DNA from: an uncultured Porticoccus sp.
Lineage (GTDB): Bacteria > Pseudomonadota > Gammaproteobacteria > Pseudomonadales > Porticoccaceae
Direction: 5' to 3'
Assembly (NCBI GenBank): GCA_947259505.1
Contig: CAMYLT010000002.1
Location: 328,598 to 392,597 of the forward strand
Length of the DNA stretch: 64,000 nt
A program made the position numbers and the translations under genes. Shown here one piece after another: positions 16,475 to 46,128 of this stretch (position 1 is the stretch's first letter; each line of letters starts with the position of its first letter). The notes under the pieces are model-generated. The model made no database searches. It was not told the origin of the DNA and saw only the letters and a program-made list of their open reading frames with translations.

Positions 16475-17401
16475 TCAATCCCTAAAATGAGGCAGTGTCA
16501 ATTTCAGACCGTCTTGTAACGACACACGTGGTTGCCAACCAAGTGCCTCCGCGAGAGCGCCACTACCACAGACCCAATCCGGGTGTCTCAATTCTCTCAG
16601 CTTACCGGGCGTCAACATGGGCTGATAGCGAAAAAGAGCCGATATACACAAATTACACTTGGCTATCATATTCAACAGCCAATACGGGATAAACACAGGT
16701 CTCACCTTACGCCGGAATACCTTCGAGGCGACCCCTACAATCTCATCCCAGCTGTATCCGTTGGGAGCTGGGTCAGAGAGAGTAAAGACTTCCCGAGGCA
16801 CTCGCTCTGCACCTAACCAAGCTATCACGGCCGCCACCAGATCATCTATATAGACGAGAGAAACCCGACTATCCGCTGAGCCAGGAATTAATGCTAAGCC
16901 ACGGGACATTAACTGAAATACCGGCAGCATCTCTCGATCACCTGGGCCATATACGGCCGGCGGGCGGAAGACGGTCAGCTCGATCTCTGGGGCGGCTTGG
17001 AGCGCAGCCTGCTCTCCAAGAAACTTGCTTGCAGCATAATGGGAAAGATCAGGTTCTCTCGAAGCCAGTGATGACATGATTAGCACTCTTGGCTTACTGT
17101 CTGACTGACTTACCGCTGCAATCAACTGCTCTACGCCTGTAACATTTGCGGGATAATAATCTTGTAGCGAACGACCGCGCACAGCACCGGCACAGTGAAT
17201 AACGGAATGACATCCAACGAGTAATTGTTCAAGCGCAGCGCCGTCGGTGATAGAACCCTGTACCAGTTGAACGCCGGACTCAGTTAAGCCCTGGGCTTTG
17301 GACGGTGTTCGAACGAGGACTTTCAGCCGGTGCCCCTGTGACAGCAGCTCTCGGCAGATACTGCTCCCGATAAACCCCGTGGCGCCGGTTACCGCAATCA
17401 T
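16475..17401 (-). CDS. NAD(P)-dependent SDR (epimerase/dehydratase fold); candidate ceramide reductase (CerR-like)
   Basis: MIAVTGATGFIGS Rossmann motif and YAASK catalytic motif. The function is inferred from position between the acyl-AMP ligase and the rest of the ceramide set. An alternative TTG start is at 17410. Confidence 0.6.
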   Translation of the reverse strand: MIAVTGATGFIGSSICRELLSQGHRLKVLVRTPSKAQGLTESGVQLVQGSITDGAALEQLLVGCHSVIHCAGAVRGRSLQDYYPANVTGVEQLIAAVSQSDSKPRVLIMSSLASREPDLSHYAASKFLGEQAALQAAPEIELTVFRPPAVYGPGDREMLPVFQLMSRGLALIPGSADSRVSLVYIDDLVAAVIAWLGAERVPREVFTLSDPAPNGYSWDEIVGVASKVFRRKVRPVFIPYWLLNMIAKCNLCISALFRYQPMLTPGKLRELRHPDWVCGSGALAEALGWQPRVSLQDGLKLTLPHFRD

Positions 17402-17475
17402 TTCTGACAAAATTGTGACACCCCCAAGTTACCCGAGCCTCACAGCATAAGCGAATCGGCGAGTATCACCCTATG

Positions 17476-19254
17476 TCAGGCGCTGATACGTAGTGGTTTT
17501 TTTTCAAAAGAATCAACGTGATCATTGGCCGAGCCTGCATTAAGGCTTGCCATAAATTCCAGTCGAGCTTTCGAACGAGATAATTTTCCCGAGGAAGTGA
17601 CCGGCAAGGAATGCGGAGGCACTAGTTCAACGCGGCAATCCAGGCTTAACTCCTCACGAACCAGTCCGGTAAGGCGTTGTAACAGCTCATCCCTTTTGGA
17701 TTCATCTGCCTCCCGACACTGTACCAATACGACACAGTGCTCATCCCCATCCGGCTCAGCTGCGGAAAATGCCAATACATCCCCCACTCTGACTTCCGGC
17801 TGGGTTTCACAGAGATGCTCGATGTCCTGTGGCCAGATATTTCGACCATGAATGATAATAAGATCTTTGATACGGCCGGTTATGGTTAAAGTGCCATTGG
17901 AACGATAACCAAGATCACCGGTGTTGAGCCAACCGTCCTCACTCAACGCATGGCGAGTTTCCTCAGGCATACCAAAGTAACCGGACATGACGCTGGGACC
18001 TGACAAGTGAATAAGCCCGGTACAGTTATCGCCAAGCACATTCCCTTCTTTATCCCGAACCTCCACCTTGTAATCAGGGAGGGGCGCACCACAGTTAACA
18101 AAGTGTCGCCCTAAACGTTTATCGCCCTCATCCATCAATACCACTTTGTGGTGATTCAGGAGCTGCTCATGATCGACGTAATCGGTCGAATAACCTTGCC
18201 CCAAGGGAGAGAAGCTGACGCCAAGGGTACACTCCGCCATACCATAACATGCAAGGAACGCCTTCGGATTAAAGCCCGCAGGAGCCAATGTTTCAGCAAA
18301 CAGGTCCAGGCTGCGGGTGCGAATCATCTCTGCACCGATGCCCGCCACACGCCAATTGCTGAGATCGTAATTATTCGCTTCACCATTGCGCAGGCGCCGC
18401 GCACAGAGGTCGTAACCAAAGCATGGGCTGAAAGAAATCGTTGCACGTGTTTTGGTTAACAGGCTCAACCACTGTCGGGGGCGCATGGCAAATTCAAGCG
18501 TATCCAGGTAATCAACAGACAACTGGGCCGCGACAGGTACAAATACAAAACCAACCAAACCCATATCGTGATAGAACGGTAACCAGGACATACAGCGGTC
18601 TTTCGGCTGCACCTTGACCCCATGAGTGATAATTCCAGCGAGATTGCTCATGGCAGTGCGGTGCCTGATCATGACACCTTTTGGGAAGCGGGTACTGCCA
18701 GAAGTATATTGGAGATAGGCAATATCGTTGGGATCAATCAGCGGAAGCGACACATCAGCCGCCGCTGGCATCTCATCAAAGGTTTCCGGCTTGTCGACCA
18801 TGCGAATGGGAAGCCCTTCCCCGGCCTCCTTGAGGAATGACAAATAGCCCTCAGAAGCAACGGCCAATTGGGCGTCGCAGGCTTTCAGCAGCCGGTGTAA
18901 TTGAGACACGTAAGAGGTATGGGCACCAAGCTTAACGGCGGCGGGGAGCGGTACCGGCACCAGACCGGCGTATTGACTGGCAAAAAAGAAGAGCAGGAAG
19001 TGGGGAGCAGTCTCCGCCACCAAAGCAACCCGGTCTCCCTTCACAAACCCAAGCCCGATCAATTTTTTTGCCAACTCAACTGCATCATCACGCAGCTGGC
19101 GATAGCCCATTTGACTGTAGATTGAACCACGTCCGGTATAAAAATTGACTCCGGTTTCGCCTTGGGCAGCATAATCGAGGGCAGCAGGGAGCGAAGCAAA
19201 GTCAGCAGGGCGAAAAGGTAATTTGTGGGTAGTTGGCGTTGGTTCAAGCTGCAC
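17476..19254 (-). CDS. Fatty acyl-AMP ligase / acyl-ACP synthetase
   Basis: 592-aa adenylate-forming enzyme: YLQYTSGSTRFPKGV, GYGMAE-type block YGMAECT, TGDLGY. GTG start is preceded by GGTGAGG. Confidence 0.85.
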   Translation of the reverse strand: MQLEPTPTTHKLPFRPADFASLPAALDYAAQGETGVNFYTGRGSIYSQMGYRQLRDDAVELAKKLIGLGFVKGDRVALVAETAPHFLLFFFASQYAGLVPVPLPAAVKLGAHTSYVSQLHRLLKACDAQLAVASEGYLSFLKEAGEGLPIRMVDKPETFDEMPAAADVSLPLIDPNDIAYLQYTSGSTRFPKGVMIRHRTAMSNLAGIITHGVKVQPKDRCMSWLPFYHDMGLVGFVFVPVAAQLSVDYLDTLEFAMRPRQWLSLLTKTRATISFSPCFGYDLCARRLRNGEANNYDLSNWRVAGIGAEMIRTRSLDLFAETLAPAGFNPKAFLACYGMAECTLGVSFSPLGQGYSTDYVDHEQLLNHHKVVLMDEGDKRLGRHFVNCGAPLPDYKVEVRDKEGNVLGDNCTGLIHLSGPSVMSGYFGMPEETRHALSEDGWLNTGDLGYRSNGTLTITGRIKDLIIIHGRNIWPQDIEHLCETQPEVRVGDVLAFSAAEPDGDEHCVVLVQCREADESKRDELLQRLTGLVREELSLDCRVELVPPHSLPVTSSGKLSRSKARLEFMASLNAGSANDHVDSFEKKPLRISA

Positions 19255-19791
19255 TAAGAATGCCTCACCTTAATAACATGTTCCCTAAGCCCGCTTGGCG
19301 TTCTGCTAACACAAGTAGCTTACTTTAATTTATTGCGCATTGGGCAACAAATAGAACCGCACTCGTCACCCTAACCGGGCACCGGGATGGCCGATTGCAG
19401 GCTTCACCCTATAAGCCTCACACTCTCGGCATCAAATCCCGACGCACATTAAATGATAACTTGAGACCATACTCATAAAAATAACTAATATTTTCAAGGT
19501 AAAACAGCATTCCCACTGCAAATCAACCATACAGGTGAAGCCTGTCGCAAGTCTAAACAGGGATACTTAAGGAAACCTTAAACGTCGACACAACACCAAA
19601 AAGCTACGCAGCCAGTCACGACGACCACTCCGCCCCCACAAAAGACTCGGTATAAAAACCCAGTTAAATTACAACGTTATGACAATCAACAGATCTACCC
19701 TAAAGTCGTACATGGAGGGTTGGTTGTAGGCTCAAAAACCGGGCTGTATACTCCTGCCTTTTTTAGCATCTGCCATTCCGGACGAGCGCTT

Positions 19792-20931
19792 ATGGGACCT
19801 GATACCGATATCATCGTCACCCCCGTACAGGGCCGGAGCGGCAGACGCGACTTTCTCCGCCTGCCAGGGAGAATCTATCGCAACGATCCCCACTGGATCG
19901 CCCCGCTGGAGCTGGAACAACGCATTCGCGTGTTCGGCAAAAACCCTTTCTTTGAACACGCCCAATGCCAGGCTTGGACCGCAACCAGGCAGGGCAAAAT
20001 CGTGGGCCGCATCACCGCACAAATCGATGAGCACTACCCGCAACACCACGATGGCCACAAACTCGGTTATTTCGGGCTGCTGGAAGCTGAGGACGATGGT
20101 GATGTATTTGCCGCATTGCTCACCACGGCCGAGGACTGGTTACGGCAACGGGGCATGACCGAGGTCCAAGGGCCGTTTAATCTGTCCATCAATGAGGAAG
20201 TCGGTCTGTTGGTGGAGGGTTTTGAGGCCCCACCCTTCGTCATGATGGGCCACGCCCCGCCCCACTATGCCCAACGTGTTGAAGAACAGGGTTACCAAAA
20301 AACGAAAGACCTGCTGACCTACACCATCCATCCGGACTTTGTGACCCCCAGGGTGATGCAAAAACTGGTGGACACCACGGGCAGTGTTGTCACCGTGCGC
20401 TGTTTGCGCCGCAAACAGCTGGTCGAAGAATTCGAGATCATGCGCGACATCTTTAACGACGCCTGGTCCAACAACTGGGGATTTGTCCCTTTTACCGAGG
20501 CGGAGTTCTCGGATATAGCCAAGACCCTGACCTTCCTGCTGGATGATGATTATGTCCAGATCGCGGAAATTGATGGTCGCCCGGTCGCCTTTATTGTTGC
20601 CCTGCCCAATATCAACGAAGCGGCAAAAGATCTGCAAGGTAGACTTTTACCCTTTGGCTGGCTGAAACTCCTGTGGCGCCTCAAGGTACGCTATCCCCTC
20701 TCAGCTCGTGTCCCGTTGATGGGCGTGCGCAAGGAATATCAGCACGCTCGACTAGGTCCCACTTTGGCCTTTATGGTGATTGATGCCGTAAGAACAGCGT
20801 TGGTAAAACGGGGTATTGAAAATGTTGAACTGGGATGGATTCTGGAAAACAACGATGGCATGCGCAATATCATTGAATCGATAGGCGGCAAGCAGTACAA
20901 AAAGTACCGCGTCTATCAAAAGCCGTTATAA
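19792..20931 (+). CDS. GNAT-fold N-acyltransferase, about 380 aa; candidate bacterial ceramide synthase (bCerS-like)
   Basis: The C-terminal half has GNAT features (MGVRKEYQHARLGPTLAF, ELGWILENNDGMRN). The role is inferred from clustering with spt, ACP, the acyl-AMP ligase and the SDR. Confidence 0.55.
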   Translation: MGPDTDIIVTPVQGRSGRRDFLRLPGRIYRNDPHWIAPLELEQRIRVFGKNPFFEHAQCQAWTATRQGKIVGRITAQIDEHYPQHHDGHKLGYFGLLEAEDDGDVFAALLTTAEDWLRQRGMTEVQGPFNLSINEEVGLLVEGFEAPPFVMMGHAPPHYAQRVEEQGYQKTKDLLTYTIHPDFVTPRVMQKLVDTTGSVVTVRCLRRKQLVEEFEIMRDIFNDAWSNNWGFVPFTEAEFSDIAKTLTFLLDDDYVQIAEIDGRPVAFIVALPNINEAAKDLQGRLLPFGWLKLLWRLKVRYPLSARVPLMGVRKEYQHARLGPTLAFMVIDAVRTALVKRGIENVELGWILENNDGMRNIIESIGGKQYKKYRVYQKPL

Positions 20932-20944
20932 CCTGAAGTACGCC

Positions 20945-21760
20945 ATGATCGATTCCCAAAACAACAACACCCTCACCGCAATTGTGCTGGCCGGCGAACG
21001 CTGCAGTACAGACCCCCTGCGCGAATTTCACGGCGCAGCCTGCAAGGCGTTAATCAAAATTGACGGCCAGCCAATGATCCATCGGGTGCTGGACGCATTG
21101 ACCTCCTCCAGTCAGATAGCTGACATCTGGTTATCCGGCCCGCAGCAGACATCGGTGGATGCCGATGATCGACTCAGCCGGGGCCTGGCCAACGGTGAGA
21201 TAACCTGGCGGAGCCCCGAGGCGACGCCCAGCACCAGCGCCTTCCGGGTCATGAGCGAAATACCTGTCGACCGGAAATGTCTGCTGACCACGGCGGATCA
21301 CCCGCTGCTGGACGCCGAAATCATTGACACATTTTGCCGGGAGAGCCTGGCCACGGGCGCCGATGTGGTGGTGGGAATGGCTCCCTATCCGCTAGTTCAC
21401 GCCAGTTTCCCGATGATGAAGAAGACGGTGCTGCGCTTTCAGGACGGCGAATTCTGCAACTGCAACCTGTTTGCTTTCCTGACCCCCGAGGGACGAAAAA
21501 TTGCTGACTTTTGGCGCAAGATCGAAAATCAGCGCAAAAAACCCATCATTTTGATTGGCCTGCTGGGATGGTGGTCGGTACTTCGCTATCGGTTTGGAAT
21601 GTTGTCGCGGGACGAGGCATTAGCTCGCCTGTCGAAGAAACTGGGTTTAAAACTCAAGGCGGTCACCCTGCCCTACGGCCATGCCGCCGTCGATGTGGAT
21701 TCCATTTCAGATTTCACCCTGGTGGAACAAAAACTAGCCGCCGCCCCCGCCAATTCCTAA
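20945..21760 (+). CDS. MobA-like NTP-transferase domain protein
   Basis: N-terminal AIVLAGERCSTDPL...KALIKIDGQPMI matches the LAGG-type nucleotidyltransferase signature. It starts 13 nt after the preceding gene. Confidence 0.6.
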   Translation: MIDSQNNNTLTAIVLAGERCSTDPLREFHGAACKALIKIDGQPMIHRVLDALTSSSQIADIWLSGPQQTSVDADDRLSRGLANGEITWRSPEATPSTSAFRVMSEIPVDRKCLLTTADHPLLDAEIIDTFCRESLATGADVVVGMAPYPLVHASFPMMKKTVLRFQDGEFCNCNLFAFLTPEGRKIADFWRKIENQRKKPIILIGLLGWWSVLRYRFGMLSRDEALARLSKKLGLKLKAVTLPYGHAAVDVDSISDFTLVEQKLAAAPANS

Positions 21761-21808: not shown

Positions 21809-22732
21809 CTAGCGGGGTATGGCAAATGATTCGGTGCCTACACTCACGAAACATGCCCCATCGTGCTGGTAGCGGCGACTGTCCAGCTGCAATATCCAGC
21901 CAGTTCCCGCGCTCTCCAGACTGTAGCGATTATATAGTGCCGTCTCTCCATGCTGCCCCAGCGCTGAAGAAGAGGGAACGCCGATCACCGGTGCCGTTTT
22001 TCCACCCGGCAGTTCAAGCATTTTATGTTGCCACTTGTGGCTGTGCCCGTGCAGCAACAATTCGACGCCGTGGCGACGGATGACATCGAGCAGTGCCTCC
22101 GCATCGCACAAGCGCTTTCGCCATTTTTCCTGCCCGGGGATCGGCGGATGGTGCAGATAAACCACCCTGAACAGTCCCTGTGAAGCTGTCTCTGCAAGCA
22201 GTGCGGACAGTTTCTTCAGCTGGGCACTGCCCAGTTTTCCTGTGGCGAAAAAAGGCGGTGTCGGCAGCGCACTGTTCAGGCCAATATATGCAATGCCATT
22301 CCGCACCTTCAGGGACGGGAAAGCCTGTGCCAGTGATGTCGGCTCTGCAGCGCCATCGGAGCGCAGATAGGGGAGCCACTGGAAGTAGGTATTCTGCCAG
22401 GACTCAACCACATAGCTGTCGTGATTTCCCGGCGCCACACTGATATCGCCAGCCACCGCCAACTGATCGAGCCAACCGCGAACCTGGGAGAACTCGTCCG
22501 GCAGTCCCAAGTGCGTCAGATCCCCGCTAACCAGCAGGTGGTTTACAGGCAAACTCAGATCGGCACGTAAGGCAGTCAGCACCGCAGTGCTGTGCTCACG
22601 ACGGCGCTTGCGACGCCAGGAAAGATAGCCCAACAATCTCTTGCTGAGCAGCTGTGAAAAAACCACGCCACTGAGATCCGACAGATGGAGATCGGAAAGG
22701 TGGACAAATACCTGTTTTGCTTCAGCACTCAT
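21809..22732 (-). CDS. Calcineurin-like metallophosphoesterase
   Basis: Motifs HLSDLH, SGDLTH, GNHD, LHHPP and GHSH occur in canonical order. Alternative GTG start at 22741. Confidence 0.8.
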   Translation of the reverse strand: MSAEAKQVFVHLSDLHLSDLSGVVFSQLLSKRLLGYLSWRRKRRREHSTAVLTALRADLSLPVNHLLVSGDLTHLGLPDEFSQVRGWLDQLAVAGDISVAPGNHDSYVVESWQNTYFQWLPYLRSDGAAEPTSLAQAFPSLKVRNGIAYIGLNSALPTPPFFATGKLGSAQLKKLSALLAETASQGLFRVVYLHHPPIPGQEKWRKRLCDAEALLDVIRRHGVELLLHGHSHKWQHKMLELPGGKTAPVIGVPSSSALGQHGETALYNRYSLESAGTGWILQLDSRRYQHDGACFVSVGTESFAIPR

Positions 22733-22787
22733 CGCTTGCACTGCCCGTTATCCGCCGATTAGGAAAGAGCCGATGACACCACCACCG

Positions 22788-23987
22788 CTAGGCAACAGGA
22801 ATGCCGACAGGGCGCGCCGCATTAACGGCAGCGAATGCGGCAATGATATGGTCAATCTGCTCGGGACTGTGGGCCGCGCTAACACTGCAACGCAGCATAC
22901 TTTTCTCGGAGGGAGACGCCGGTGGCACCACTAGGTTGACATACACTCCTGCCTCCAAAAGCTTCTGCCAGCTTTGCAGAGCCTCGACCCGATCCTCAAT
23001 GGTGACGGCCACCACCGGGCTGACACTGGGGCCCACAGCCAGCCCCAACTGCTTCAGCCCCGTATAGAGAAGCTGGGCGTTTTCCCACAAACGCTCTCTG
23101 CGCTGCGGCTCGGCAGTGATAATTTTCAGTGCGGTACGCACTGAAGCAATCACACCGGGCGTCGCCGAGGCGGTGAAGATATAAGAACGCACACTGAACC
23201 GGATGGCCTCCAGCAGGGCATGTCGGCTGACACAAAAACCGCCCGTAGCACCAAGACTTTTACTAAACGTGCCCGCAATAAAATCGACGTCATCCTCCAC
23301 GCCCGCCGCTTCGGCAGCACCGCGCCCATGCTCACCCAGAACGCCCATGGAGTGCGCCTCATCTACCAACAAATAACCACCATAGCGTCGCTTCAGTTCG
23401 GCAATTTCTTTCAGTGGGGCAACGTCGCCAAGCATGCTGTAGATGCCTTCTACCACGATCAGAGTGTTACCGGTCCGGTCGCCCAATCGTCTCAGACGTT
23501 TTTCCAGGTCATTGGTATCACTGTGCTTAAAGCGGATAATTTCCGCACCGCTCAGCTGGGCACCCGCGTAGATGCTGGCGTGACTGTCCGCATCCAGCAG
23601 AATGACATCACCGGGTCCCGCCAGAGTTGCGCACATTCCCTGAGTGGCCGCATAGCCGGTGGTAAACACAATGGCCTGGTCCACACCATAAAACTGCGCC
23701 AGTTCCTGCTCCAGGGCGATGTGTTCGGCAAAGGTGCCGTTAGCCATGCGGGAACCCGTCGTTCCCGTGCCCCAGGTTTCTGCCGCAGCCTGCGCGCTGG
23801 CAATGCAGCGGGTATCAAAAGACATACCGAGATAATTATTGGTGCCGGCGAGGATAACCTGATGGCCGTTAACCACCCCCTCAGTTGCCGACGTAATTTT
23901 TTCTGTTACAGCTCCGAATGGAACGATACCAATGGCTTCGAGTTCTGCGCGAACCCCAGCCATAGACTGAAATTTATCGAGAAGCAT
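22788..23987 (-). CDS. spt: Alpha-oxoamine synthase, serine palmitoyltransferase type
   Basis: 399-aa PLP enzyme (AGTNNYLG, DEAHSMG, GTFSKSLG Lys motif) directly downstream of a dedicated ACP. ATG at 23987 is preceded by GGAGG. Confidence 0.8.
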   Translation of the reverse strand: MLLDKFQSMAGVRAELEAIGIVPFGAVTEKITSATEGVVNGHQVILAGTNNYLGMSFDTRCIASAQAAAETWGTGTTGSRMANGTFAEHIALEQELAQFYGVDQAIVFTTGYAATQGMCATLAGPGDVILLDADSHASIYAGAQLSGAEIIRFKHSDTNDLEKRLRRLGDRTGNTLIVVEGIYSMLGDVAPLKEIAELKRRYGGYLLVDEAHSMGVLGEHGRGAAEAAGVEDDVDFIAGTFSKSLGATGGFCVSRHALLEAIRFSVRSYIFTASATPGVIASVRTALKIITAEPQRRERLWENAQLLYTGLKQLGLAVGPSVSPVVAVTIEDRVEALQSWQKLLEAGVYVNLVVPPASPSEKSMLRCSVSAAHSPEQIDHIIAAFAAVNAARPVGIPVA

Positions 23988-24036
23988 GGAAAAGGTATTA
24001 CCTCCTGATGAGGGAACAGGAGCCGGAATGCCCCGG

Positions 24037-24276
24037 CTAGCCGTTGAGTTCTTGCAGCTTGCGAGCCAGATCACCAACGGTATTGATATCAGGCAGAATA
24101 TTCAGGGAGATAGAAATATCAAAATGGTCTTCAATGTGCTCTATCAACTCCATCACTTGCAGTGAGCTCAGTCCCAACTCCGTTACCAAGTCTGTATTCT
24201 CAGTAAACTCAACATCTTGTTTGATCGTACGCAGCACTGTGTAGATGTAATCAACGTAGATATTATAATTTGGCAT
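24037..24276 (-). CDS. Acyl carrier protein (dedicated)
   Basis: 79-aa acidic four-helix pattern with attachment motif LGLSSLQVMEL. Confidence 0.75.
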   Translation of the reverse strand: MPNYNIYVDYIYTVLRTIKQDVEFTENTDLVTELGLSSLQVMELIEHIEDHFDISISLNILPDINTVGDLARKLQELNG

Positions 24277-35937: not shown

Positions 35938-36876
35938 TCAGGATGCAGCCGCCATCTTGGGCGCATCCTTGCCGATGCGCCAACGTTCTACTACTTCGAA
36001 TGCATCACTACGCAAGTGCCCCTGACGCATTTCATCGCGCAGTTGCTGTTCGGTGATGATTCCCTTCTCAAGACATTCACCAACCAGGCTGAAAAAGAAC
36101 CGCTCCTGATTCGGATCGGGATGCTCTTTGTAGCGACCGGCCAAACCATAATCACCAAACAGCGCCCTGCGGGCACGGCGCAACCAGTGCTTTGGCGGGA
36201 ACAGCTGGAACGTATCCGCCGCACGGAAATCCACCTTGAGGCCCGTCTTCCAGGGCTGAGTTTTGCGTTTGGTGTTGTGTAGCATGTGGGTCGCCGGGGT
36301 CAGGCGGTCAAAATCATTCCACTCATTTTCAAACAGGCCGATGGTATCCGGGTCCTCCAGCTTGAGGGATACCCAGTCCATGTAGTCGCGCTGTCCGGTG
36401 AACATCTCGTTGACATTCTCTTCCAGGCGCCAGTGGGTCAGTTTGGCGCAGTCCAGTAACATCACGCTGGAGGCCATGGCACCCCGGCGTCCTTTGTTGC
36501 CGGATTTGGGTCGACACATCAGCGCCGCTCCCTCCATATCCCGGGACAACAAATCCCATACATCACCTACGGCAAACACATCGGGATCGACCACCAACGC
36601 CCGGCCCGTGTAATTCATCAGTTGGGGGGGCGCGAACCGCAGCGGGGTGAACGACTGAAGATCATCATTCAACCAGGCGCGCATTTCGCCATCGCGCAGG
36701 TAGCGCTGCCCTTCACGCTCCTGCAAACAGGGGAAGTCCCGGTTGTGCATGAAGCGCACTTCGAACTTGTCGTTATGGCTGGAGTTGCGGCGGAACGCGT
36801 ATTCGCTGATCAATGCGCCGAGCCATTGCTTATGGTTGGCTTGAATAAAAACGCAGTAGTCCAAGGATGACCTCAC
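35938..36876 (-). CDS. GT8-like nucleotide-sugar transferase, paralog A
   Basis: DxD in ALVVDPDVFA and the GT8-type HxxGxxKPW-like motif LHNTKRKTQPWKTG. Paralogous to 38211..39158. GTG or TTG start. Confidence 0.5.
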   Translation of the reverse strand: MRSSLDYCVFIQANHKQWLGALISEYAFRRNSSHNDKFEVRFMHNRDFPCLQEREGQRYLRDGEMRAWLNDDLQSFTPLRFAPPQLMNYTGRALVVDPDVFAVGDVWDLLSRDMEGAALMCRPKSGNKGRRGAMASSVMLLDCAKLTHWRLEENVNEMFTGQRDYMDWVSLKLEDPDTIGLFENEWNDFDRLTPATHMLHNTKRKTQPWKTGLKVDFRAADTFQLFPPKHWLRRARRALFGDYGLAGRYKEHPDPNQERFFFSLVGECLEKGIITEQQLRDEMRQGHLRSDAFEVVERWRIGKDAPKMAAAS

Positions 36877-37065
36877 AATCGTCTAGAAGTGAAACAAACT
36901 CTATCGCCTGAGTGGTCGAATCCTAGCAGCTTGAAACGGCCAGATCACTCACCCAGATCAAATAATCGGCACTTTCCCCAGCCCGCAAATATCGCCATTC
37001 AAGCAGAATTGGTGGAATACCCCGAATTGGGTAAACTGCCTGTCTCGATCAGTATCGGTCTCCCC

Positions 37066-38151
37066 ATGACGCAATCAGAGCAAACAGCAACTCCACGAGT
37101 CTGGCTCTTATTCGGCCAAAAAGCCGGTGACAATAATCAGGCGCTGGCCCTGGCGGAACAACTGGGCTGGCCTTACACCATCAAGACCATCCACCATCAG
37201 CCCTGGGAACTAGTTACCAATCTGCTGCTGGGGCCCAACTTGAAAGGCGTCAAACTAAGGACTTCCAGTGAACTGGAAGCTCCCTGGCCAGACTTGATCA
37301 TCTCTGCCGGGCGTCGCAATGAGCCTGTGGCACGCTGGATTCGGCACCAATCAAGCGGCCAATCCCGCCTTGTCCATATCGGTCGCCCCTGGGCACCACT
37401 GGCCAGTTGGGACCTGATTGTTACCACGCCGCAATATTTCCTGCCCGCAGCCGACAACGTGCTGCTCAACCGTCTGCCCCTGCATCGGATCACCCCCGAG
37501 CGCCTGGCACTTGAGGCCACTACTGAATCACCCTGGCACAACCTGCCTCGGCCCTATACGGCAGTACTGCTGGGCGGTGACAGCGGACAGTTTGTCTTCA
37601 CGGCAGAGAAAGGACAACGGATGGGCTTGCTGGCGAACACACTGGTAAAAAGAATGGGCGGATCGGTGCTTATTTCCGATAGCCGGCGCACCCCGGCCGC
37701 CGCCAGCGAAGCCTTCTGGAAACAGCTATCTGTACCCGCCTGGCGCCATAACTGGCACGATGGCCAGAACAGCAACCCCTATATGGCCCTTCTCGCCCAA
37801 GCAGACCAGCTGGTGGTCACAGGGGAAAGCATGTCCATGCTCACTGAAGCCACCGCCACCGGCAAACCGCTGTTTATCTTCGACATGTCTGACCGGGACA
37901 GCCGCTGGTGGCGGCAATGCCACAATTACCGTCACAAACCCCTCAGCCATCGGCTCGCCATGGCACTGGGGCCGCGACGCATGCGCAGGGATATCGCCAG
38001 GATACAGGAAGCGTTGGTAGCGGATGGTCGGGCCGTCTGGCTCGATGACGAAAGCATCGGTCAGGGTGAATTATTTTCCGGGAAGAATGTTGCCCCGCGC
38101 GAGGCGGAGTGCCGGACCGCGGCACAGCGCATCAGAGATATGTTTGGCTAA
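37066..38151 (+). CDS. ELM1-family protein, paralog 3
   Basis: RVWLLFGQKAGDNNQ, APWPDLIISAGRRNEPVARWIRHQSSGQSRLVHIGRPW, WDLIVTTPQY, VLLGGDSG. ATG at 37066; the ORF-track GTG at 36889 adds a non-homologous leader. Confidence 0.7.
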   Translation: MTQSEQTATPRVWLLFGQKAGDNNQALALAEQLGWPYTIKTIHHQPWELVTNLLLGPNLKGVKLRTSSELEAPWPDLIISAGRRNEPVARWIRHQSSGQSRLVHIGRPWAPLASWDLIVTTPQYFLPAADNVLLNRLPLHRITPERLALEATTESPWHNLPRPYTAVLLGGDSGQFVFTAEKGQRMGLLANTLVKRMGGSVLISDSRRTPAAASEAFWKQLSVPAWRHNWHDGQNSNPYMALLAQADQLVVTGESMSMLTEATATGKPLFIFDMSDRDSRWWRQCHNYRHKPLSHRLAMALGPRRMRRDIARIQEALVADGRAVWLDDESIGQGELFSGKNVAPREAECRTAAQRIRDMFG

Positions 38152-38210: not shown

Positions 38211-39158
38211 TCAAGCGGCTTTGGCCTGCATACCCGACAGTGGGTGGCGGTCCGGCGGCGGTAAATCCGGGGTGCGGGCCAGCACCTCAAAAGCGTCGTG
38301 GCGCACATGGTTCTGGCGCATTTCCCCGCGCAGGAATTCCTCGCTGATTTTGCCCTGCTCCACACACTCCTTGAGCAGCCCGAAAAAGAACAATTCCTGG
38401 TGCTTGTCCGGGTGGACCTTGTAGTTGCCCAATAGGCCGTACTCGCCGAACACGTGACGACGGGCGCGCATCAGCCAGCCGATGGGCGGGAACGCCCGGA
38501 ATTTTTCCGCCGGGCGCCAGTCGGTGGGCAGTCCGGTTTTCCAGGGCTGGGTCTTGCGCCGGGTGGTGTGAAGCATTTTGGTATCAAGGGAAAGCTTATC
38601 GAAGTCATTCCACTCATTTTCCAGAAAACCAATGGTCTCAGGGTCCTCAGTTTTGAGGCCGATCCACGGCTGATAGTCCCAAGCCGAATCAAACATGGCA
38701 TTGAACTGCTGCTCCACCTTCCAGTGGGTGAGCTGGCTGCAATCGAGCAACATCACGCTGCTGGCGACCATCTTGTCGATATACCCTTTCGGACCCGAGC
38801 GCATCCTCGCCATAATGGCCTTGCCCTGCATATCCCGGGACAGCAGTTCCCAGATGTCCACCGCAGCAAAAACATCCGGATCGATCACTACCGCACGACC
38901 TTCATAATCCATCAATTCCGGTGGCATAAAGCGCGTCGGGGTGAAGGACTGGAGGTCCTCATTCAGCCATACCCGCTTGACGCCATCGCGCAGATAGGAC
39001 TGTCCCTCACGGGCAGCAAAATACGGGTAGTCACGGGTATCCATGATGGTGACGTCAAACAACTCATTGTGCCGGGAATAGCGGCGCAGCGCGTGCTCCG
39101 CCACAATGGCACCCGTTATCTGCTTATGATTGGTCTGGATAAATACACCGTACTTCAT
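38211..39158 (-). CDS. GT8-like nucleotide-sugar transferase, paralog B
   Basis: AVVIDPDVFA and LHTTRRKTQPWKTG. It aligns along its whole length with paralog A (roughly half the residues identical by eye). Confidence 0.5.
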   Translation of the reverse strand: MKYGVFIQTNHKQITGAIVAEHALRRYSRHNELFDVTIMDTRDYPYFAAREGQSYLRDGVKRVWLNEDLQSFTPTRFMPPELMDYEGRAVVIDPDVFAAVDIWELLSRDMQGKAIMARMRSGPKGYIDKMVASSVMLLDCSQLTHWKVEQQFNAMFDSAWDYQPWIGLKTEDPETIGFLENEWNDFDKLSLDTKMLHTTRRKTQPWKTGLPTDWRPAEKFRAFPPIGWLMRARRHVFGEYGLLGNYKVHPDKHQELFFFGLLKECVEQGKISEEFLRGEMRQNHVRHDAFEVLARTPDLPPPDRHPLSGMQAKAA

Positions 39159-39308
39159 GGCAAAACAACCCGACTGATTAGACCACCGCATAATAAGTCA
39201 ACACCGCCGATGGAATCCATCCGGCCCACCGGATCATTGCGCTTCAATTGATCCGGATCGGATTGCCACCACAGTGAAAACTGCTGCTAGCTGTGGCTCT
39301 CCTGCTGA

Positions 39309-39319
39309 GGGGGGGGGGG
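39309..39319. repeat. Homopolymeric G11 (C11 on the gene strand) tract abutting an 8-bp palindrome
   Basis: Counted directly: g at 39309-39319, then gtatcccc-aa-ggggatac (39319-39336). It lies between the stop of the Tam41-like gene and the start of GT8-like paralog B. Confidence 0.9.
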
Positions 39320-39440: not shown

Positions 39441-40370
39441 TTACTTAAATACACCCTGGCGATAGAGGCGCCAGAACAGCCCCCAGGAATAGATCAGGGG
39501 ATGGCGGCGCACCTTGTCGGGTATCTCCACCCGCTGTCCCGAATGCCGCTCCAATTTCCAGGCAAGGTAGTCGAGGCCACCGTCGAAGGTGAACAAGGCC
39601 TTGAGCAGCCTCAACACCGAAAACGACTTTCCCCACAACTTGCGAAATTTCCAGCGCAGGGGGGCCAGCTTGCGCGACAGCTTGCCGATGTCTGCTTGGT
39701 AGTGCAGTTCACCGTCCCGCTCTTCAACCTTCAGTTGAGGCAGAACGCCGCCGGCTAGTTGCAGGGCCTGCTGTGCGTAGAAGTCCCTGGAAAAATGTAC
39801 CAACTCACGCGCCCTGCCCGCCCGCTCGGTGCGCAACTCGGTGCCGTAGCTCAGCGATAGCCCCTGCTGCCACAACTGCTCGACCGTACCACTGGCGGGC
39901 AGTGCCGGCAGCACCTGGGCCAGGAAGGTAGCGCGGGCATCCGCCAGGCACTGTTGCAGAAACGCGCGATCCGGCTCACTGCGACTGTAGACAATGTCGG
40001 TAGGCTGGGCGAAACGGCCCCAGAAATAGGATTCGAAACGGCGCAAGGAGTTGTAACGGGCAAAGTCGCGCGCCGACACCACGGCATACTTGCTGCGCAC
40101 CGAGCGCTCCCCGCTCCCCGCCTCGATGTAAAACACATTGGGTGGCAACAACCAGTTGCCCAATGCCAGGACTCTGCGGCCATAACAGGCCCGGTAGCTG
40201 TCGACGATGACATACAAGTCCACCAGCCCTTCATAAAAATCGCCGCTGCGCAAACAGGAGCCGTAGACAATGGCACTGCTCATGGCGGCACCATACTTTT
40301 GCCGCAGCTGTGCCAGCAGTGGTTCCAGTGCCTCAAAATGGCTGCTTGTAATAGTCGGAGACTCCGTCAT
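39441..40370 (-). CDS. Tam41/Mmp37-like nucleotidyltransferase family protein (candidate CTP-dependent lipid-phosphate cytidylyltransferase)
   Basis: Blocks parallel my remembered yeast Tam41. Ours versus Tam41: IVYGSC...VDLYVIVDSY; SKYAVVSARDF vs VKYGVVS; ESYFWGRFAQP vs TFYLAGRLQKP; LSYGTELR vs LSYAGDIR; LLKALFTFDGGLDYLAWKLER vs IKGVFTAGITKSIKYAWAKKLK. Confidence 0.5.
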   Translation of the reverse strand: MTESPTITSSHFEALEPLLAQLRQKYGAAMSSAIVYGSCLRSGDFYEGLVDLYVIVDSYRACYGRRVLALGNWLLPPNVFYIEAGSGERSVRSKYAVVSARDFARYNSLRRFESYFWGRFAQPTDIVYSRSEPDRAFLQQCLADARATFLAQVLPALPASGTVEQLWQQGLSLSYGTELRTERAGRARELVHFSRDFYAQQALQLAGGVLPQLKVEERDGELHYQADIGKLSRKLAPLRWKFRKLWGKSFSVLRLLKALFTFDGGLDYLAWKLERHSGQRVEIPDKVRRHPLIYSWGLFWRLYRQGVFK

Positions 40371-40381
40371 AAGCGCCGTCG

Positions 40382-41416
40382 CTATAGGGCCAGGAATGAC
40401 AGTGGCCCGGCGGCGGTAATCACCACCGGCCCGTCTTCCCGGCGCACCGGCACAATTTCCCCATCCAGATTGAAACTGCCATCCATCAGCAGGGTAATTT
40501 GCCCCGCGCGGTGGCTGTGGTAGCCATCTGCGGCAGCGGGTTGAGCTTTGCGATTGCGCCGCAGGATGGACAGGAAAGTGCGCAGGAAACGCTTGGCATC
40601 GGAGGTGATCAGGCTCATTTTCAAGGGCGCCTCCCCGCTCCCCCAGAAGGGGTGAATGCCCAGAAACAGGCGCTCAAGACTGCTGATGGCGAGAATACGG
40701 GCATGAAACTCGCCATACCGCTCACCGTCCAGGGTGACATCCACGGGCAGTGGCTGATTGAATTCCGGGTGGCCACGGACAATGCCCCACAGGGTGCGCA
40801 CCAATCCCAGCCCCAAGCTGAAATCGTCTCGCAAGCCCCGAGAATGTATTTCCCGGTGAGCGTATTCGCTGGCCTGAATAATTGCCCCGCTGCCAAAAAA
40901 CATGCCGAAATGCGGCGCCCCGCCAGCGCCCACCTCCACCCGCAACACGTGTCGCTGTACCACCCTGCCCGCGATAAGCCGCTCACCGTGGCTCCAGAGG
41001 CAAAGCCGTTCCAGCGCCCGCAGCAGGGAGCCTTTTACCCCCACGTCACCGGCCGTCATATTGGCGGTGCCGCCGGGCAGCAGGGCTATCAGCGGCGGCG
41101 TCTTGAATGGGCTGTCCTGCAGCAGGTGGGCAAAGATATGCGCGGCGGTGCCGTCGCCCCCGTTGATCGCCAGCACTTCAACCGACTGACGGGCGATGTT
41201 TTCGAGTATCGTGGGAATTTCCGCAGCGGAAGAAGTCCGGTAGTGGAGCAAGCCGGGGCAACGCGAAACCAGTTCATCGACGCGACGTCGCTGGTCGCGG
41301 TTGTGGCCACTGTTGCAATTGCTGATCACAGCAATGGGGGTGGTGCGGCAAACCGCCTGCGGAGTCATCATGCTGGTCATACTATTACAAAGAAAGAAGA
41401 GGGACATGCCACGCAA
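40382..41416 (-). CDS. DAGK-catalytic-domain lipid kinase (YegS/LCB5 type); candidate ceramide kinase
   Basis: VLAINGGDGTAAHIF and LPGGTANMTAGD motifs. Its stop is 11 nt before the Tam41-like start. Own start uncertain (TTG 41416, ATG 41407 or 41380). Confidence 0.75.
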   Translation of the reverse strand: MRGMSLFFLCNSMTSMMTPQAVCRTTPIAVISNCNSGHNRDQRRRVDELVSRCPGLLHYRTSSAAEIPTILENIARQSVEVLAINGGDGTAAHIFAHLLQDSPFKTPPLIALLPGGTANMTAGDVGVKGSLLRALERLCLWSHGERLIAGRVVQRHVLRVEVGAGGAPHFGMFFGSGAIIQASEYAHREIHSRGLRDDFSLGLGLVRTLWGIVRGHPEFNQPLPVDVTLDGERYGEFHARILAISSLERLFLGIHPFWGSGEAPLKMSLITSDAKRFLRTFLSILRRNRKAQPAAADGYHSHRAGQITLLMDGSFNLDGEIVPVRREDGPVVITAAGPLSFLAL

Positions 41417-41498: not shown

Positions 41499-42425
41499 CT
41501 ACGGCAAAGTCGCCCGCCGGTCAGGGATGACTGCCCGAATCAGGTCGATGGCGGTTTCCCCCATCCTGGGCGCGGTACCCCTTATCTGTAGCGGCAGTCC
41601 TATGACGGGGTCCAGCAGGATACTGACAGGGCCCGTCAGTCCCATCAGTTCGAACTCATCCTCGGGCGCGGCGCCGACAGGCTGCACCTGCAATGACACC
41701 ACCAGTGCCGCCACAGGTTCCTTTACCTCGCGGGTGGTATTGCCGCTCAGCAGGCGGTAATCAACGGCCACCTCTTCCACGCCGGTCACCGCCATCTCCA
41801 CCCGCAGGTAATCCACATCGGTATAGAGATATTGAGTCCAGCTGTCTCCCAGTTTGTTGAGCGGTCCCGAGCTGACCGCCACCAGCAGGGCATAGGGAGA
41901 CAGCAGGGGTGGAGAAGCGGACAACGCTTCCGGGAATAGCCGCTGCATCGCGGAGGATTTGGACCAGAGCTCCGGCGACAAGCCACGCTCGGCGGCCAGC
42001 GGTTCCCGGCGCACCCGGTAAATACCCTGTTCCAACAGACGGTACTGTTTCATCCGCCGCTGTTTGCCCTCGCTGATGCGCGAACGCTGGTAGACCTGCA
42101 GATTATCCGGGTCCATCCAGATCGACACCTGCTCACGGCTGTTGCCGAGTTGACTCTGCACCCTCAACTGCCAGAGGGTGTCCCCCCCGGGGCAGACCGG
42201 TTTCATTCGCTCAGGAGATAACCATGTGTCGGCGACACTCGCAGCGGTCACCGGGCTGAGGGAGAGCGATGTCGAGGCCTTTAGCCACAAGTAATTCTTT
42301 GCGTAGGCCAATTCCGTCCACGGCGGGGTTGCGGGCTGCTGGCCGGCGAGAACCGACGACGAGCCAACCGCGCCTTGGGTCAGTGCCAGCGCTAACAATC
42401 CAACTTGTAACAAGCTTCTCAACAT
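41499..42425 (-). CDS. Secreted protein of unknown function
   Basis: ATG at 42425 gives the signal peptide MLRSLLQVGLLALALTQGAVG. I recognise no motif. The 450-aa ORF-track version adds an implausible Cys/Arg-rich leader. Confidence 0.55.
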   Translation of the reverse strand: MLRSLLQVGLLALALTQGAVGSSSVLAGQQPATPPWTELAYAKNYLWLKASTSLSLSPVTAASVADTWLSPERMKPVCPGGDTLWQLRVQSQLGNSREQVSIWMDPDNLQVYQRSRISEGKQRRMKQYRLLEQGIYRVRREPLAAERGLSPELWSKSSAMQRLFPEALSASPPLLSPYALLVAVSSGPLNKLGDSWTQYLYTDVDYLRVEMAVTGVEEVAVDYRLLSGNTTREVKEPVAALVVSLQVQPVGAAPEDEFELMGLTGPVSILLDPVIGLPLQIRGTAPRMGETAIDLIRAVIPDRRATLP

Positions 42426-42621
42426 GGAGAACTTCCCACCCTCTCGGCACACGGATGCCGATATCCTGACGATTTCAGCTTGAAAACGCCAGCGGCCCCG
42501 GGAGCACCCGGTGACCCCGGAAGCAGCCCGATAACATTCCACTGACACCATTACCCCGATACCATGACATAGTATGCTCAGCATCCAAGCTTTGTGTGGC
42601 AACACAATAATCCCGAGAAAA

Positions 42622-43425
42622 ATGAATCCCGAGAAATCCGCAACCCATCGCAACAGTGACCGACTTTCGTTACCAAAAAGCGGGACTGTCCACCTGTGGC
42701 TAATGGCGAGCGATGAAATCCACTGCGGTGCGAAACAATCCAACTGGGTCAGCCTCCTACCTACAGGGGAGCGCGAGCGGGTTTTGCGCCAACTGGCGCC
42801 GGAGGATAAACAACAGGCCCTAGCCACCCGGGTGCTCATTCGTGCAGTCATCTCCGCTTACCTGGGAGAAAACCCCGGTGACTGGCGTTTCGACGCCTCG
42901 CCAACTGGCAAACCCTTTCTGATCGATGCCCCAGAACCTGTGGCATTCAACCTTTCCCATTCCGGTAATCTGGTGGCCTGTGTCATAAGCGGGGAGCAGG
43001 TAATCGGGGTGGATATCGAAGATAGTCGTGTGGAACGCAACTTCCTCGCTCTTGCCAGGCGCTTTTTTGCCCCGCAGGAGTACACAGAATTAGCCAGCCT
43101 GCCCGCCGCTGCGCAGGCCGACTACTTCTACCATCTCTGGACCCTGAAAGAATCCTGCCTAAAGGCCAGGGGACGGGGATTGGCCAACGGACTGGACAGT
43201 TACCGCTTCCAGCGGGACAGCCACGGCAAATACCACCTCTCCGCCCCGCCGGATACATCAGGACAATGGCAGCACCAGTTACTCGCCGAACAGCCCGGAT
43301 ATCAAATTGCCATTAGCCAGCGCAGTACCCACCAGCGGCCTCCCGACATGTGCGTTGAAACCTACCGTATGGACTCGGAGCGGTTGTTAACATTATGGCG
43401 GGGACAACACTCACCCCATCTGTAA
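42622..43425 (+). CDS. Sfp-type 4'-phosphopantetheinyl transferase
   Basis: FNLSHSGNLV, VGVDIE and WTLKESCLKARG motifs. Start uncertain (42574-42700). Confidence 0.8.
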   Translation: MNPEKSATHRNSDRLSLPKSGTVHLWLMASDEIHCGAKQSNWVSLLPTGERERVLRQLAPEDKQQALATRVLIRAVISAYLGENPGDWRFDASPTGKPFLIDAPEPVAFNLSHSGNLVACVISGEQVIGVDIEDSRVERNFLALARRFFAPQEYTELASLPAAAQADYFYHLWTLKESCLKARGRGLANGLDSYRFQRDSHGKYHLSAPPDTSGQWQHQLLAEQPGYQIAISQRSTHQRPPDMCVETYRMDSERLLTLWRGQHSPHL

Positions 43426-44381: not shown

Positions 44382-44570
44382 ACACCATGGGCTTAGCCGT
44401 AGCTGTGTTGAACATTTTGAGCGATCCAGCAGTGGCCGCAAGCCGTCATTTTATATTCAGGGCATTCCCTACCCCACTGTCACAAACCAAGTCCGCCAAC
44501 GCTTAAAAAGTCGGCGACCGAACGTGACAGGTTGATTTAAACCCAGATTAATTACGAAGAGGCAAAACCG

Positions 44571-44939
44571 ATGTCAGGCTACGTACCTGAAGAATTTGTA
44601 ATGTTAAAAGGAGAAATATTGGACGGGATGGTTGATGCTCTTGAGTCTGCCGGAGAAGATGCAGATTACACTGTTGTAGCAATCGATACCTGTGCAACCA
44701 TTCTTGAAGATTATCTTGAAGAAGTATTTTCGCCATCCATCTATGGCCGATCAAAAAAGATTATGGACGTGGTCAAGTTTACGATAAACGAACTCAATGA
44801 ACTCAATGATGACTGCAACCAAAGCCTTATCGAGAGCGAACAGCGCGATCAACTTCGTGAACTGATTGTTGCCTCTGCGGCCTATGCCGGACTCGAAACA
44901 GATAAGCAGGACATAACTGAGGACTGGCGTGCGTGGTAG
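44571..44939 (+). CDS. Small acidic hypothetical protein
   Basis: 122-aa ORF behind AAGAGG, very Asp/Glu-rich, with no motif I recognise. Confidence 0.5.
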   Translation: MSGYVPEEFVMLKGEILDGMVDALESAGEDADYTVVAIDTCATILEDYLEEVFSPSIYGRSKKIMDVVKFTINELNELNDDCNQSLIESEQRDQLRELIVASAAYAGLETDKQDITEDWRAW

Positions 44940-46125: not shown

Positions 46126-46128
46126 AAA

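Follow-up and report, generated by a model that had tools for sequence, protein, structure and literature searches.

Introduction

In Caulobacter crescentus, the cpgABC operon adjoins spt, and CpgB (CCNA_01218 = CC_1160) has been purified and proven to be a ceramide kinase (PMC10331486). A deletion of cpgC (CCNA_01219 = CC_1161) keeps ceramide-1-phosphate (C1P) and loses ceramide phosphoglycerate (CPG), and Zik et al. gave CpgC the whole step from C1P to CPG (PMC9393093). CpgA is a CDP-alcohol phosphatidyltransferase required for the second phosphoglycerate, and CpgD (CCNA_01210) makes CDP-glycerate (PMC12275187) and is strictly CTP-specific (PMC13228409). Olea-Ozuna et al. (2024) noted a Tam41 domain in CC_1161 (IPR015222, S1 Text) and put forward a ceramide activated with a nucleoside diphosphate (NDP); the mechanism of CpgC was called 'unidentified' in June 2025 (PMC12275187) and again in May 2026 (PMC13228409). 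Here, we describe a locus from an uncultured Porticoccus sp. (assembly GCA_947259505.1, contig CAMYLT010000002.1, positions 328,598 to 392,597; this 64,000-nucleotide stretch is hereafter the window), in which a predicted lipid kinase gene is directly followed by a gene for a 309-aa protein resembling the nucleotidyltransferase (NTase) Tam41/Mmp37. Taken as a whole, the locus is probably best explained by a cpgB/cpgC-type pair that starts sphingolipid head-group synthesis via CDP-ceramide.

A predicted lipid kinase and its Tam41-like partner

Both genes of the pair lie on the minus strand of the window. An earlier annotation made from the letters alone (the sequence-only reading) had placed a kinase with a DAGK catalytic domain 11 nt before the 309-aa open reading frame (ORF), leaving the strand unstated, and direct reading of TAG, 11 nt and ATG bore this out. 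The domain was likewise recovered by profile search (PF00781, E 9e-13), and the GGDGT and PGGTAN motifs named in that reading are both present. Bacterial ceramide kinases form a clade of their own and have been recognized by a DAGK/LCB5-type domain, GGDG and the lack of the CxxxCxxC motif of eukaryotic ceramide kinase (CERK) (PMC10331486); CxxxCxxC is absent from the translation of the window kinase. The kinase aligned over its full length with the kinase in the cpgB position of Roseomonas mucosa plasmid p1 (32% identity, E 5e-30) and with that of Pseudomonas plasmid pPNP1 (31% identity, E 3e-28), and its nearest solved structures were BmrU, DgkB and YegS, all weak matches (E about 1e-4). Since an ATG stands at 41380 and homologue alignments begin at residue 28, the gene probably starts there rather than at the TTG at 41416.

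Assignment of the kinase to YegS or to the NAD kinases was rejected. Its scores stayed far under the YegS equivalog cut-offs (28 bits versus 284 for NF009602; 23 versus 387 for TIGR03702), and the NAD-kinase-like gene of the window is a separate one. This second protein with a DAGK_cat domain, at 53296-54468 on the minus strand, belongs to the NAD-kinase family (PF01513 and PF20143) and has no relation to the cluster described below.

Five sequence blocks of the 309-aa protein (IVYGSC, SKYAVVS, SYFWGRFAQP, LSYGTELR and LKALFTFDGGLDYLAWKLE) had been likened to yeast Tam41 in the sequence-only reading. All five are present, and profile and model comparisons indicate that the kinship with Tam41 is real but remote. 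A profile built from 30 close relatives reached Schizosaccharomyces pombe Tam41 (SpTam41; 6IG2) with E 0.008, and one built from 57 diverse relatives, which share 32-54% identity with the window protein, reached it with E 1.6e-7. The Tam41 family model PF09139 was matched at E<=1 by 22 of the 30 close relatives (best 8.8e-9), and the family representative P0124 scored 34.3 bits. The AlphaFold2 (AF2) model of the protein (predicted local distance difference test score, pLDDT, 83.8; predicted template modelling score, pTM, 0.80) has an NTase and a winged-helix domain arranged as in the solved Tam41 structures. Its top three Foldseek matches in the PDB were all Tam41, namely 7ECD (E 2.8e-10), 6IG4_A (1.6e-9) and 6IG4_B (9.5e-9); 7ECD is a Firmicutes Tam41 with CTP-Mg, and 6IG4, like 6IG2, is SpTam41. 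The next class of fold matches, the aminoglycoside nucleotidyltransferases, was about 10^5 weaker (1e-5), and MNT-type antitoxins were also matched.

Tam41 stands out among NTase-fold enzymes in that, of the three acidic residues canonical for this fold, it retains only one, and its basic residues bind CTP (PMC11646218). The same acidic pattern was seen in the family of the window protein, in which D51 never varies and the second acidic position is taken by Y53. In total, G37, S38, D51, P77, V79, K94, R119, Q122, E178, R180, E182, Y268, K272, H276 and G278 are invariant in the 57 relatives. In the profile alignment, G37 and S38, D51, K94, R119, Q122, E178, R180 and E182 face the SpTam41 segments YGSG, IDF, KYGV, GRFQKP, LSYLGDIR and AEN; the consensus blocks shared with SpTam41 are YGS[GC], the D of IDF/VDL, KY[GA]V, GRFxxP, and LSYxxx[IL]R with the E that follows. 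These alignments and the model support retention of the Tam41 active-site signature, and presumably of its catalytic apparatus, in the CpgC-type family. The protein is predicted to lack transmembrane segments; its eight strongest helical hydrophobic moments all fall within residues 228-307, with net charges of +2 to +7, and this cationic amphipathic C-terminus resembles the C-terminal membrane anchor of Tam41 (PMC7018664). The last ~70 residues (FTFxGGxDYxxWKxxRHSG...) are strongly conserved in the family.

These data also bear on whether the protein is an enzyme of lipids at all. Retention of a single canonical acidic residue, and the further good fold matches to aminoglycoside nucleotidyltransferases and MNT-type antitoxins, would suit a protein that is non-catalytic here, serving as a partner or regulator of the kinase, or one that nucleotidylates a non-lipid such as a sugar phosphate or a protein. 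However, one acidic residue is the exact Tam41 pattern (PMC11646218), some 15 invariant residues among sequences that differ so widely from the window protein imply a constrained active site, and the lipid phenotype of the cpgC deletion is a specific one, with C1P kept and CPG lost. We therefore regard a non-catalytic or non-lipid role as very unlikely.

Probable correspondence of the pair to cpgB and cpgC

A tblastn search of annotated plasmids and chromids yielded three informative records with homologues, namely Roseomonas mucosa p1, Pseudomonas sp. JS425 pPNP1 and Qipengyuania citrea plas1. On R. mucosa p1, the genes run in the order NTP-transferase, hypothetical protein (in the position of the bacterial ceramide synthase, bCerS), desaturase, two LptF/G proteins, HIT protein, metallophosphoesterase, CDP-alcohol phosphatidyltransferase, DAG-kinase family protein, hypothetical protein, GT39, serine palmitoyltransferase (Spt), acyl carrier protein (ACP) and flippase, with a short-chain dehydrogenase/reductase (SDR), an acyl-AMP ligase and a cytidylyltransferase further on. 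Apart from a few inserted genes, this order is collinear with Caulobacter CC_1153-CC_1166 (order from Olea-Ozuna S1 Text). The hypothetical protein in the cpgC position of p1 aligned with the window Tam41-like protein over 271 residues (34% identity, E 6e-47) and keeps all family-invariant residues; the pPNP1 counterpart is 36% identical. When all proteins of the Roseomonas and Pseudomonas clusters were searched against the window with tblastn, bCerS, Spt, AasR, CerR, ACP and the proteins of the CC_1153 and CC_1158 positions were recovered.

All five ceramide genes (spt, acpR, aasR, cerR and bcerS) lie in the window, at 16.4-24.3 kb. The setting is one of sphingolipid rather than glycerophospholipid synthesis, in keeping with the ceramide route of the sequence-only reading. 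In each of the six genomes compared in Olea-Ozuna S2 Table (6/6), the two cpg genes are neighbours. From this synteny and homology, the pair very probably falls within the cpgB/cpgC families and takes part in making sphingolipid head groups.

Plasmid pPNP1 (L082), an IncP plasmid of Pseudomonas sp. JS425, has a sphingolipid/cpg-type cluster that is close to complete. It comprises Spt, ACP, CerR, acyl-AMP ligase, LptF/G, kinase, Tam41-like protein, CDP-alcohol transferase and cytidylyltransferase, and its neighbours are an IS5 transposase and a sul1-bearing class 1 integron. Carriage in such a setting suggests that the sphingolipid pathway could spread by plasmid.

The kinase and the Tam41-like gene travel together and fuse

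The Tam41-like family is large, comprising more than 5258 proteins among cluster representatives at 90% identity; at 50% identity, 1432 clusters match with E<=1e-3. We compared 80 related loci (Halieaceae, Halioglobus, Haliea, Thiogranum, Roseovarius and others), 38 of which span at least 20 kb. The kinase was found in 76 of the 80, and several of the remaining four have their match a few hundred bases from a contig end; in every one of the 38 longer loci (38/38), it lies directly upstream of the Tam41-like gene on the same strand. In 33 of 74 loci the two genes share a 4-nt ATGA overlap, and in 29 more the junction measures at most 30 nt; an overlap or a gap of up to 30 nt was counted in 63 of the 74. 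Q. citrea plas1 keeps the pair, with a 4-nt overlap, though the genes on either side have nothing to do with sphingolipid synthesis. Chance does not account for the pairing. Loci of the Thiogranum type run through CerR, AasR, bCerS, nucleotidyltransferase and metallophosphoesterase to the kinase and the Tam41-like gene. A scan of species-representative genomes yielded relatives 47-57% identical to the Tam41-like protein, none above 57%, and no locus from Caulobacter, Sphingomonas or Azotobacter.

The two functions also occur in single polypeptides. A DAGK_cat::Tam41-like fusion of 662 aa, represented by two sequences, is encoded directly after a cpgA-like CDP-alcohol phosphatidyltransferase gene, which reproduces the order cpgA-cpgB-cpgC. 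A second fusion, CDP-alcohol phosphatidyltransferase::Tam41-like (727-757 aa), forms a 21-member cluster, one member of which was found on 11 contigs; it adjoins an NTP-transferase and a fatty-acid hydroxylase, and its 757-aa form lies on Lysobacterales-type contigs. The fusion records are L084-L086 (10001-12274) and protein P0271. This second fusion is the most informative, because it ties the Tam41-like domain to a class of enzymes acting on CDP-linked alcohols. A third arrangement, NTP_transf_3::Tam41-like (P0264), was set aside as a single sequence that may be an artefact of assembly or gene calling.

A predicted route through CDP-ceramide

By homology to the proven enzyme, the window kinase would convert ceramide and ATP to C1P. 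In the mechanism that we propose, this soluble DAGK-fold kinase would act first, on ceramide supplied by Spt, AcpR, AasR, bCerS and CerR. The Tam41-fold enzyme, attached to the inner membrane on its cytoplasmic side by its cationic amphipathic C-terminus, would then bind CTP-Mg through one acidic residue (D51) and the basic residues K94, R119 and R180, and move CMP onto the phosphate of C1P, yielding CDP-ceramide and pyrophosphate (PPi) in a reaction that mirrors that of Tam41 on phosphatidate. For this second step (C1P + CTP -> CDP-ceramide + PPi), we infer the chemistry from fold, fusions and active-site signature and from the phenotype of the Caulobacter cpgC deletion. Finally, an acceptor alcohol would displace CMP and gain ceramide-phosphate; in Caulobacter the acceptor is glycerate, and in the lineage of the window it is probably a different one, possibly a sugar, to be extended and sulfated afterwards.

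Several observations weigh against this route. Searched alone, the 309-aa protein scored 14.8 bits against PF09139 (E 0.019), under the 24-bit Pfam cut-off, and single-sequence searches of PDB sequences with phmmer and of NCBIfam gave no match; the link to Tam41 is therefore visible through profiles and fold search only. The sequence-only reading had suggested running the Mmp37 (Tam41) hidden Markov model (HMM) and comparing structures, and the outcome was divided, with the single-sequence HMM search negative and both the profile of the relatives and the fold comparison positive. The template modelling (TM) scores of the model against Tam41 reach only 0.51-0.61 (0.55/0.61 for 7ECD). Furthermore, nothing in crystallised SpTam41 aligns with the ~70 C-terminal residues, among them the invariant Y268, K272 and H276; the reaction could therefore be a different one from that of Tam41. 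A Caulobacter cpgA deletion still makes CPG (PMC9393093), which leaves a CDP-ceramide with no named consumer, and CDP-alcohol phosphatidyltransferases (PF01066), the class by which CDP-lipids are normally consumed, were detected neither in the window ORFs that were scanned nor, at up to 10 kb, in any related locus (0/80). In vitro, CpgB itself phosphorylates diacylglycerol (DAG) and ceramide about equally well (PMC10331486). The connection to CpgC runs through Roseomonas/Pseudomonas synteny and the published domain description, not through the CCNA_01219 sequence. Lastly, the term 'CDP-ceramide' was absent from the literature searched, in which we found neither detection of CDP-ceramide nor biochemistry of the CpgC family. 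The statement of the sequence-only reading that no CDP-ceramide has been described in bacteria accordingly holds for experiments; the idea itself had precedent in the NDP-activated ceramide proposed in 2024 by Olea-Ozuna et al.

Some of these points would favour an enzyme that acts on C1P without releasing free CDP-ceramide, either by using another NTP (ATP, GTP or UTP) to form an NDP-ceramide or by attaching the head group itself. In the original model CpgC 'adds glycerate to C1P', a separate transferase has not been found, and the polar residues of the family-specific C-terminus could serve such a reaction. The wording of Olea-Ozuna et al. is just 'NTP/NDP', and nucleotide specificity is not readable from sequence or model data. 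On the other hand, both solved Tam41 enzymes are CTP-dependent, 7ECD being a CTP-Mg complex, the neighbouring pathway enzyme CpgD accepts CTP only, and the fusion with a CDP-alcohol phosphatidyltransferase points to a CDP-linked product. We consider this alternative rather unlikely; CDP-ceramide as the specific product of the second enzyme has slightly better than even prospects.

The breadth of CpgB in vitro raises a further alternative, salvage of glycerophospholipids, in which a diacylglycerol kinase would form phosphatidate and a bacterial Tam41 would convert it to CDP-diacylglycerol (CDP-DAG), as the Firmicutes Tam41 does. Bacterial Tam41 homologues make CDP-DAG, according to Kimura 2022 as cited in PMC11646218, and the solved kinases nearest to the window kinase are DgkB, BmrU and YegS. 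Yet the pair lies within or directly after ceramide-synthesis genes, both in the window and in the related loci, and is positionally equivalent to cpgB/cpgC; phosphatidate levels in Caulobacter were unaltered by cpgB deletion (PMC10331486), and the kinase scored far under the YegS equivalog cut-offs. Glycerophospholipid salvage is thus improbable, and we retain the route from ceramide to CDP-ceramide as the preferred reading.

The surrounding cluster and its head-group genes

The stretch at 14.7-43.4 kb, ~29 kb long, is a sphingolipid biosynthesis cluster with the kinase/Tam41-like pair at its distal end (Table 1). Besides the listed genes, it holds an LpxL-like acyltransferase, a fatty-acid hydroxylase, two 2-oxoglutarate (2OG) oxygenases, a GT2 protein and an MsbA-type ABC exporter. 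The closest database proteins to the window proteins are 94-97% identical, with 97% for the GT8-like protein to one from Porticoccus sp.

Table 1 Coordinates of the pair and of neighbouring cluster genes in the window.
Feature	Position	Strand	Basis or remark
CpgB-type DAGK-fold lipid (ceramide) kinase, predicted	40382..41416	-	ORF of 344 aa from TTG 41416; PF00781
Spacer from kinase stop to Tam41-like ATG	40371..40381	-	11 nt, cgacggcgctt, directly after TAG
CpgC-type Tam41-fold nucleotidyltransferase, 309 aa, proposed ceramide-1-phosphate cytidylyltransferase	39441..40370	-	profile, fold, synteny
Secreted-looking protein, ~308 aa, 5' of kinase	41499..42425	-	listed 450-aa ORF 41499-42851 over-extended
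GT8-like (GT-A fold) glycosyltransferase, predicted	38211..39191	-	next gene after Tam41-like; AF2 fold match
GT8-like paralogue	35938..36876	-	57% identity to 38211-39191
ELM1/GtrOC1-family putative glycosyltransferases (three)	36889..38151, 24270-25559, 28635-29783	+	PF06258 E 3e-61, 9e-63, 2e-52
Sulfotransferases (tandem pair and third)	33960-34961, 34958-35914; 27682-28608	+	PF00685 E 4e-22, 5e-24, 1e-21
Serine palmitoyltransferase (Spt)	22788..24077	-	PF00155 E 3e-62; 55-57% identity to Roseomonas/pPNP1 Spt
AcpR-like acyl carrier protein, 79 aa	24037..24276	-	43% identity to pPNP1 phosphopantetheine-binding protein
Metallophosphoesterase (CC_1158 position)	21809..22741	-	PF00149; 39% identity to Roseomonas metallophosphoesterase
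MobA/CofC-like nucleotidyltransferase (CC_1153 position)	20945..21760	+	PF12804; 35-43% identity to Roseomonas/pPNP1 counterparts
Bacterial ceramide synthase (bCerS, GNAT-like)	19720..20931	+	PF00583 weak; 48% identity, E 1e-103, to Roseomonas CerS-position protein
AasR-like acyl-ACP synthetase / fatty acyl-AMP ligase	17476..19254	-	PF00501; 47-51% identity to Roseomonas/pPNP1 ligases
CerR-like NAD-dependent reductase	16475..17410	-	PF01370; 33-42% identity to CerR-position reductase
HetI/Sfp-type 4'-phosphopantetheinyl transferase	42574..43425	+	PF01648, PF22624; cluster edge, divergent transcription

tblastn of the Roseomonas and Pseudomonas CpgA, CpgD, LptF/G, HIT and flippase proteins gave no match in the window. 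The window accordingly lacks a complete CPG2 pathway (cpgA-cpgB-cpgC-cpgD); this absence of cpgA and cpgD covers the window, and the genes could lie elsewhere in the genome. With cpgA and cpgD absent and GT8-like, ELM1-like and sulfotransferase genes in their stead, the head group or acceptor is probably different and the final lipid probably not CPG2.

The GT8-like gene directly follows the Tam41-like gene in most related loci. Its product had no Pfam match, and all of its 5782 relatives are annotated as hypothetical; the AF2 model (pLDDT 82.1) matches WbbM, GT8, XXYLT1, LARGE1, LgtC and glycogenin with E 5e-8 to 5e-5, and D104-P-D106 (a DPD motif) is invariant in the family. We considered this protein as the transferase that consumes CDP-ceramide and found this less likely, since the model is that of a GT8-type glycosyltransferase using sugar nucleotides. 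Its paralogue shares 47% identity with a Roseomonas hypothetical protein that adjoins ELM1. Homologues of the ELM1-like proteins are named 'ELM1/GtrOC1 family putative glycosyltransferase' at NCBI, and the family is also represented in the sphingolipid clusters of R. mucosa and pPNP1. Genes of the GT8-like family keep company with ELM1-like ones, and a part of about 140 aa in a 780-aa ELM1-family protein of pPNP1 is weakly related to the GT8-like family (26-28% identity, E about 1e-5), suggesting an ELM1/GT8-like fusion.

Sulfotransferases are kept in about 55 of the 80 related loci, which implies that the sphingolipid head group may be sulfated. We found no sulfated sphingolipid head group described for these taxa, and our literature search returned nothing that combines Halieaceae, Halioglobus or Porticoccus with sphingolipids. 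As a matter of speculation, the GT8-like protein and the three sulfotransferases point to a glycosylated, sulfated head group rather than diphosphoglycerate.

The nucleotidyltransferase of the CC_1153 type, whose counterparts adjoin CerS in Roseomonas and LptF in pPNP1, and the metallophosphoesterase are kept beside the pair, and for this reason might take part in the first step of head-group synthesis. The superfamily of the metallophosphoesterase also includes LpxH, which cleaves a nucleotide-lipid pyrophosphate. Combining these elements, CDP-ceramide might donate ceramide-phosphate to a sugar, which the GT8-like and ELM1-like proteins would extend and the three sulfotransferases would sulfate before export by the MsbA-type transporter. 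Such undescribed sulfated phospho-glycosphingolipids, which would be expected in marine and sediment Gammaproteobacteria (Halieaceae, Porticoccaceae, Thiogranum; Roseovarius is also among the loci), are a tentative and, on present evidence, doubtful end point.

Upstream of the kinase, the ORF at 41499-42851 runs into the gene for the 4'-phosphopantetheinyl transferase and probably starts at 42425. The N-terminus of its product, MLRSLLQVGLLALALTQGAVG, looks by eye like a signal peptide, and a Pfam search with the protein gave no match. In 34 of the 80 related loci a homologue sits immediately upstream of the kinase, and the product could be a periplasmic component that handles lipids. The 4'-phosphopantetheinyl transferase at the cluster edge, kept in 27 of the 80, scored E 1e-34 against the HetI model NF042922, under the cut-off of that model.

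Further observations concern the DNA itself. A scan for promoters and terminators across 38.1-43.6 kb found sites no more numerous than in shuffled controls. The 250-nt spacer between the Tam41-like and GT8-like genes contains a run of 11 C at ~39300-39312 (minus-strand reading), possibly a slippage-prone tract. Within the cluster, the stretch at 30000-34000 has a low GC content (0.44-0.45 versus ~0.55-0.6 around it) and carries genes for GT2, a 2OG-Fe(II) oxygenase and a 251-aa protein that fits no family; just 1-5 of the 80 related loci keep them, and the stretch is probably a recently acquired variable module. Outside the cluster, a low-GC islet (0.46) at 44500-46216 encodes a 122-aa ORF and a protein with a NOV_C (NO VEIN C-terminal) domain, abuts tRNA-Ser(GGA) at 46129-46216 and looks like a small integrated element.

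Discussion

The locus bears on the way in which C1P is turned into complex anionic sphingolipids in bacteria. The pair is part of the already known cpgB/cpgC system, and the idea of an activated ceramide is already in print. What our analysis adds is support, from structure and motifs, for a catalytic site of the Tam41 type in the CpgC family, natural fusions that tie the Tam41-like domain both to the kinase and to the CDP-alcohol phosphatidyltransferase, and a very large, mainly marine gammaproteobacterial branch in which glycosyltransferases and sulfotransferases accompany the pair in place of cpgA and cpgD. At the conserved core of a very large family stands the pair itself, with many members in abundant marine gammaproteobacteria, and its varied gene company suggests that the sphingolipid head groups of environmental bacteria are more diverse than so far described. 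A CDP-activated ceramide would be a Kennedy-type intermediate new to experimental sphingolipid biochemistry. If the sulfated phospho-glycosphingolipid proposed above were to prove true, the lineage would provide the first CDP-activated sphingolipid intermediate together with a new anionic lipid of the outer membrane.

Comparison with known systems

The soluble lipid kinases YegS, DgkB and BmrU have the DAGK_cat domain with the GGDG ATP-binding motif in common with the window kinase, whereas the YegS models match just its N-terminal 110 residues. For the second enzyme, the proposed reaction type, in which a lipid phosphate and CTP give a CDP-lipid and PPi, equals that of the integral-membrane CDP-DAG synthase CdsA. 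However, CdsA is polytopic and of an unrelated fold, in contrast to the Tam41-like protein with its lack of transmembrane segments. With Tam41/Mmp37 (S. pombe 6IG2/6IG4; Firmicutes 7ECD), the window protein has in common the two-domain fold, the GS motif, the single catalytic Asp and conserved Lys/Arg residues, and peripheral membrane binding via a cationic C-terminus, a Tam41 feature, is predicted for it likewise. Identity between the two amounts to about 17-19%, the window family has a conserved C-terminal module of its own, and the lipid substrate is phosphatidate for Tam41 and, as predicted from the genomic setting, C1P for the window protein.

The closest counterpart is the Caulobacter cluster. 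There, as in the window, a DAGK-fold kinase (CpgB) is followed on the same strand by a Tam41-domain protein (CpgC), and spt, acpR, aasR, cerR, bcerS, the CC_1153-like nucleotidyltransferase and the CC_1158-like metallophosphoesterase are found in both; the window pair aligns over its full length with the same-position proteins of Roseomonas and Pseudomonas at 31-39% identity. Caulobacter has, in addition, cpgA, cpgD, a HIT gene and an LptF/G paralogue, none of which is in the window, which instead carries two GT8-like and three ELM1-like genes, three sulfotransferases, two 2OG oxygenases and the MsbA-type ABC exporter. CpgD differs from the Tam41-like protein in its choline-phosphate cytidylyltransferase-like fold and soluble substrate, and has no homologue in the window. 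Nevertheless, as a cytidylyltransferase of the CPG pathway, it shows that this pathway uses CDP-activated intermediates.

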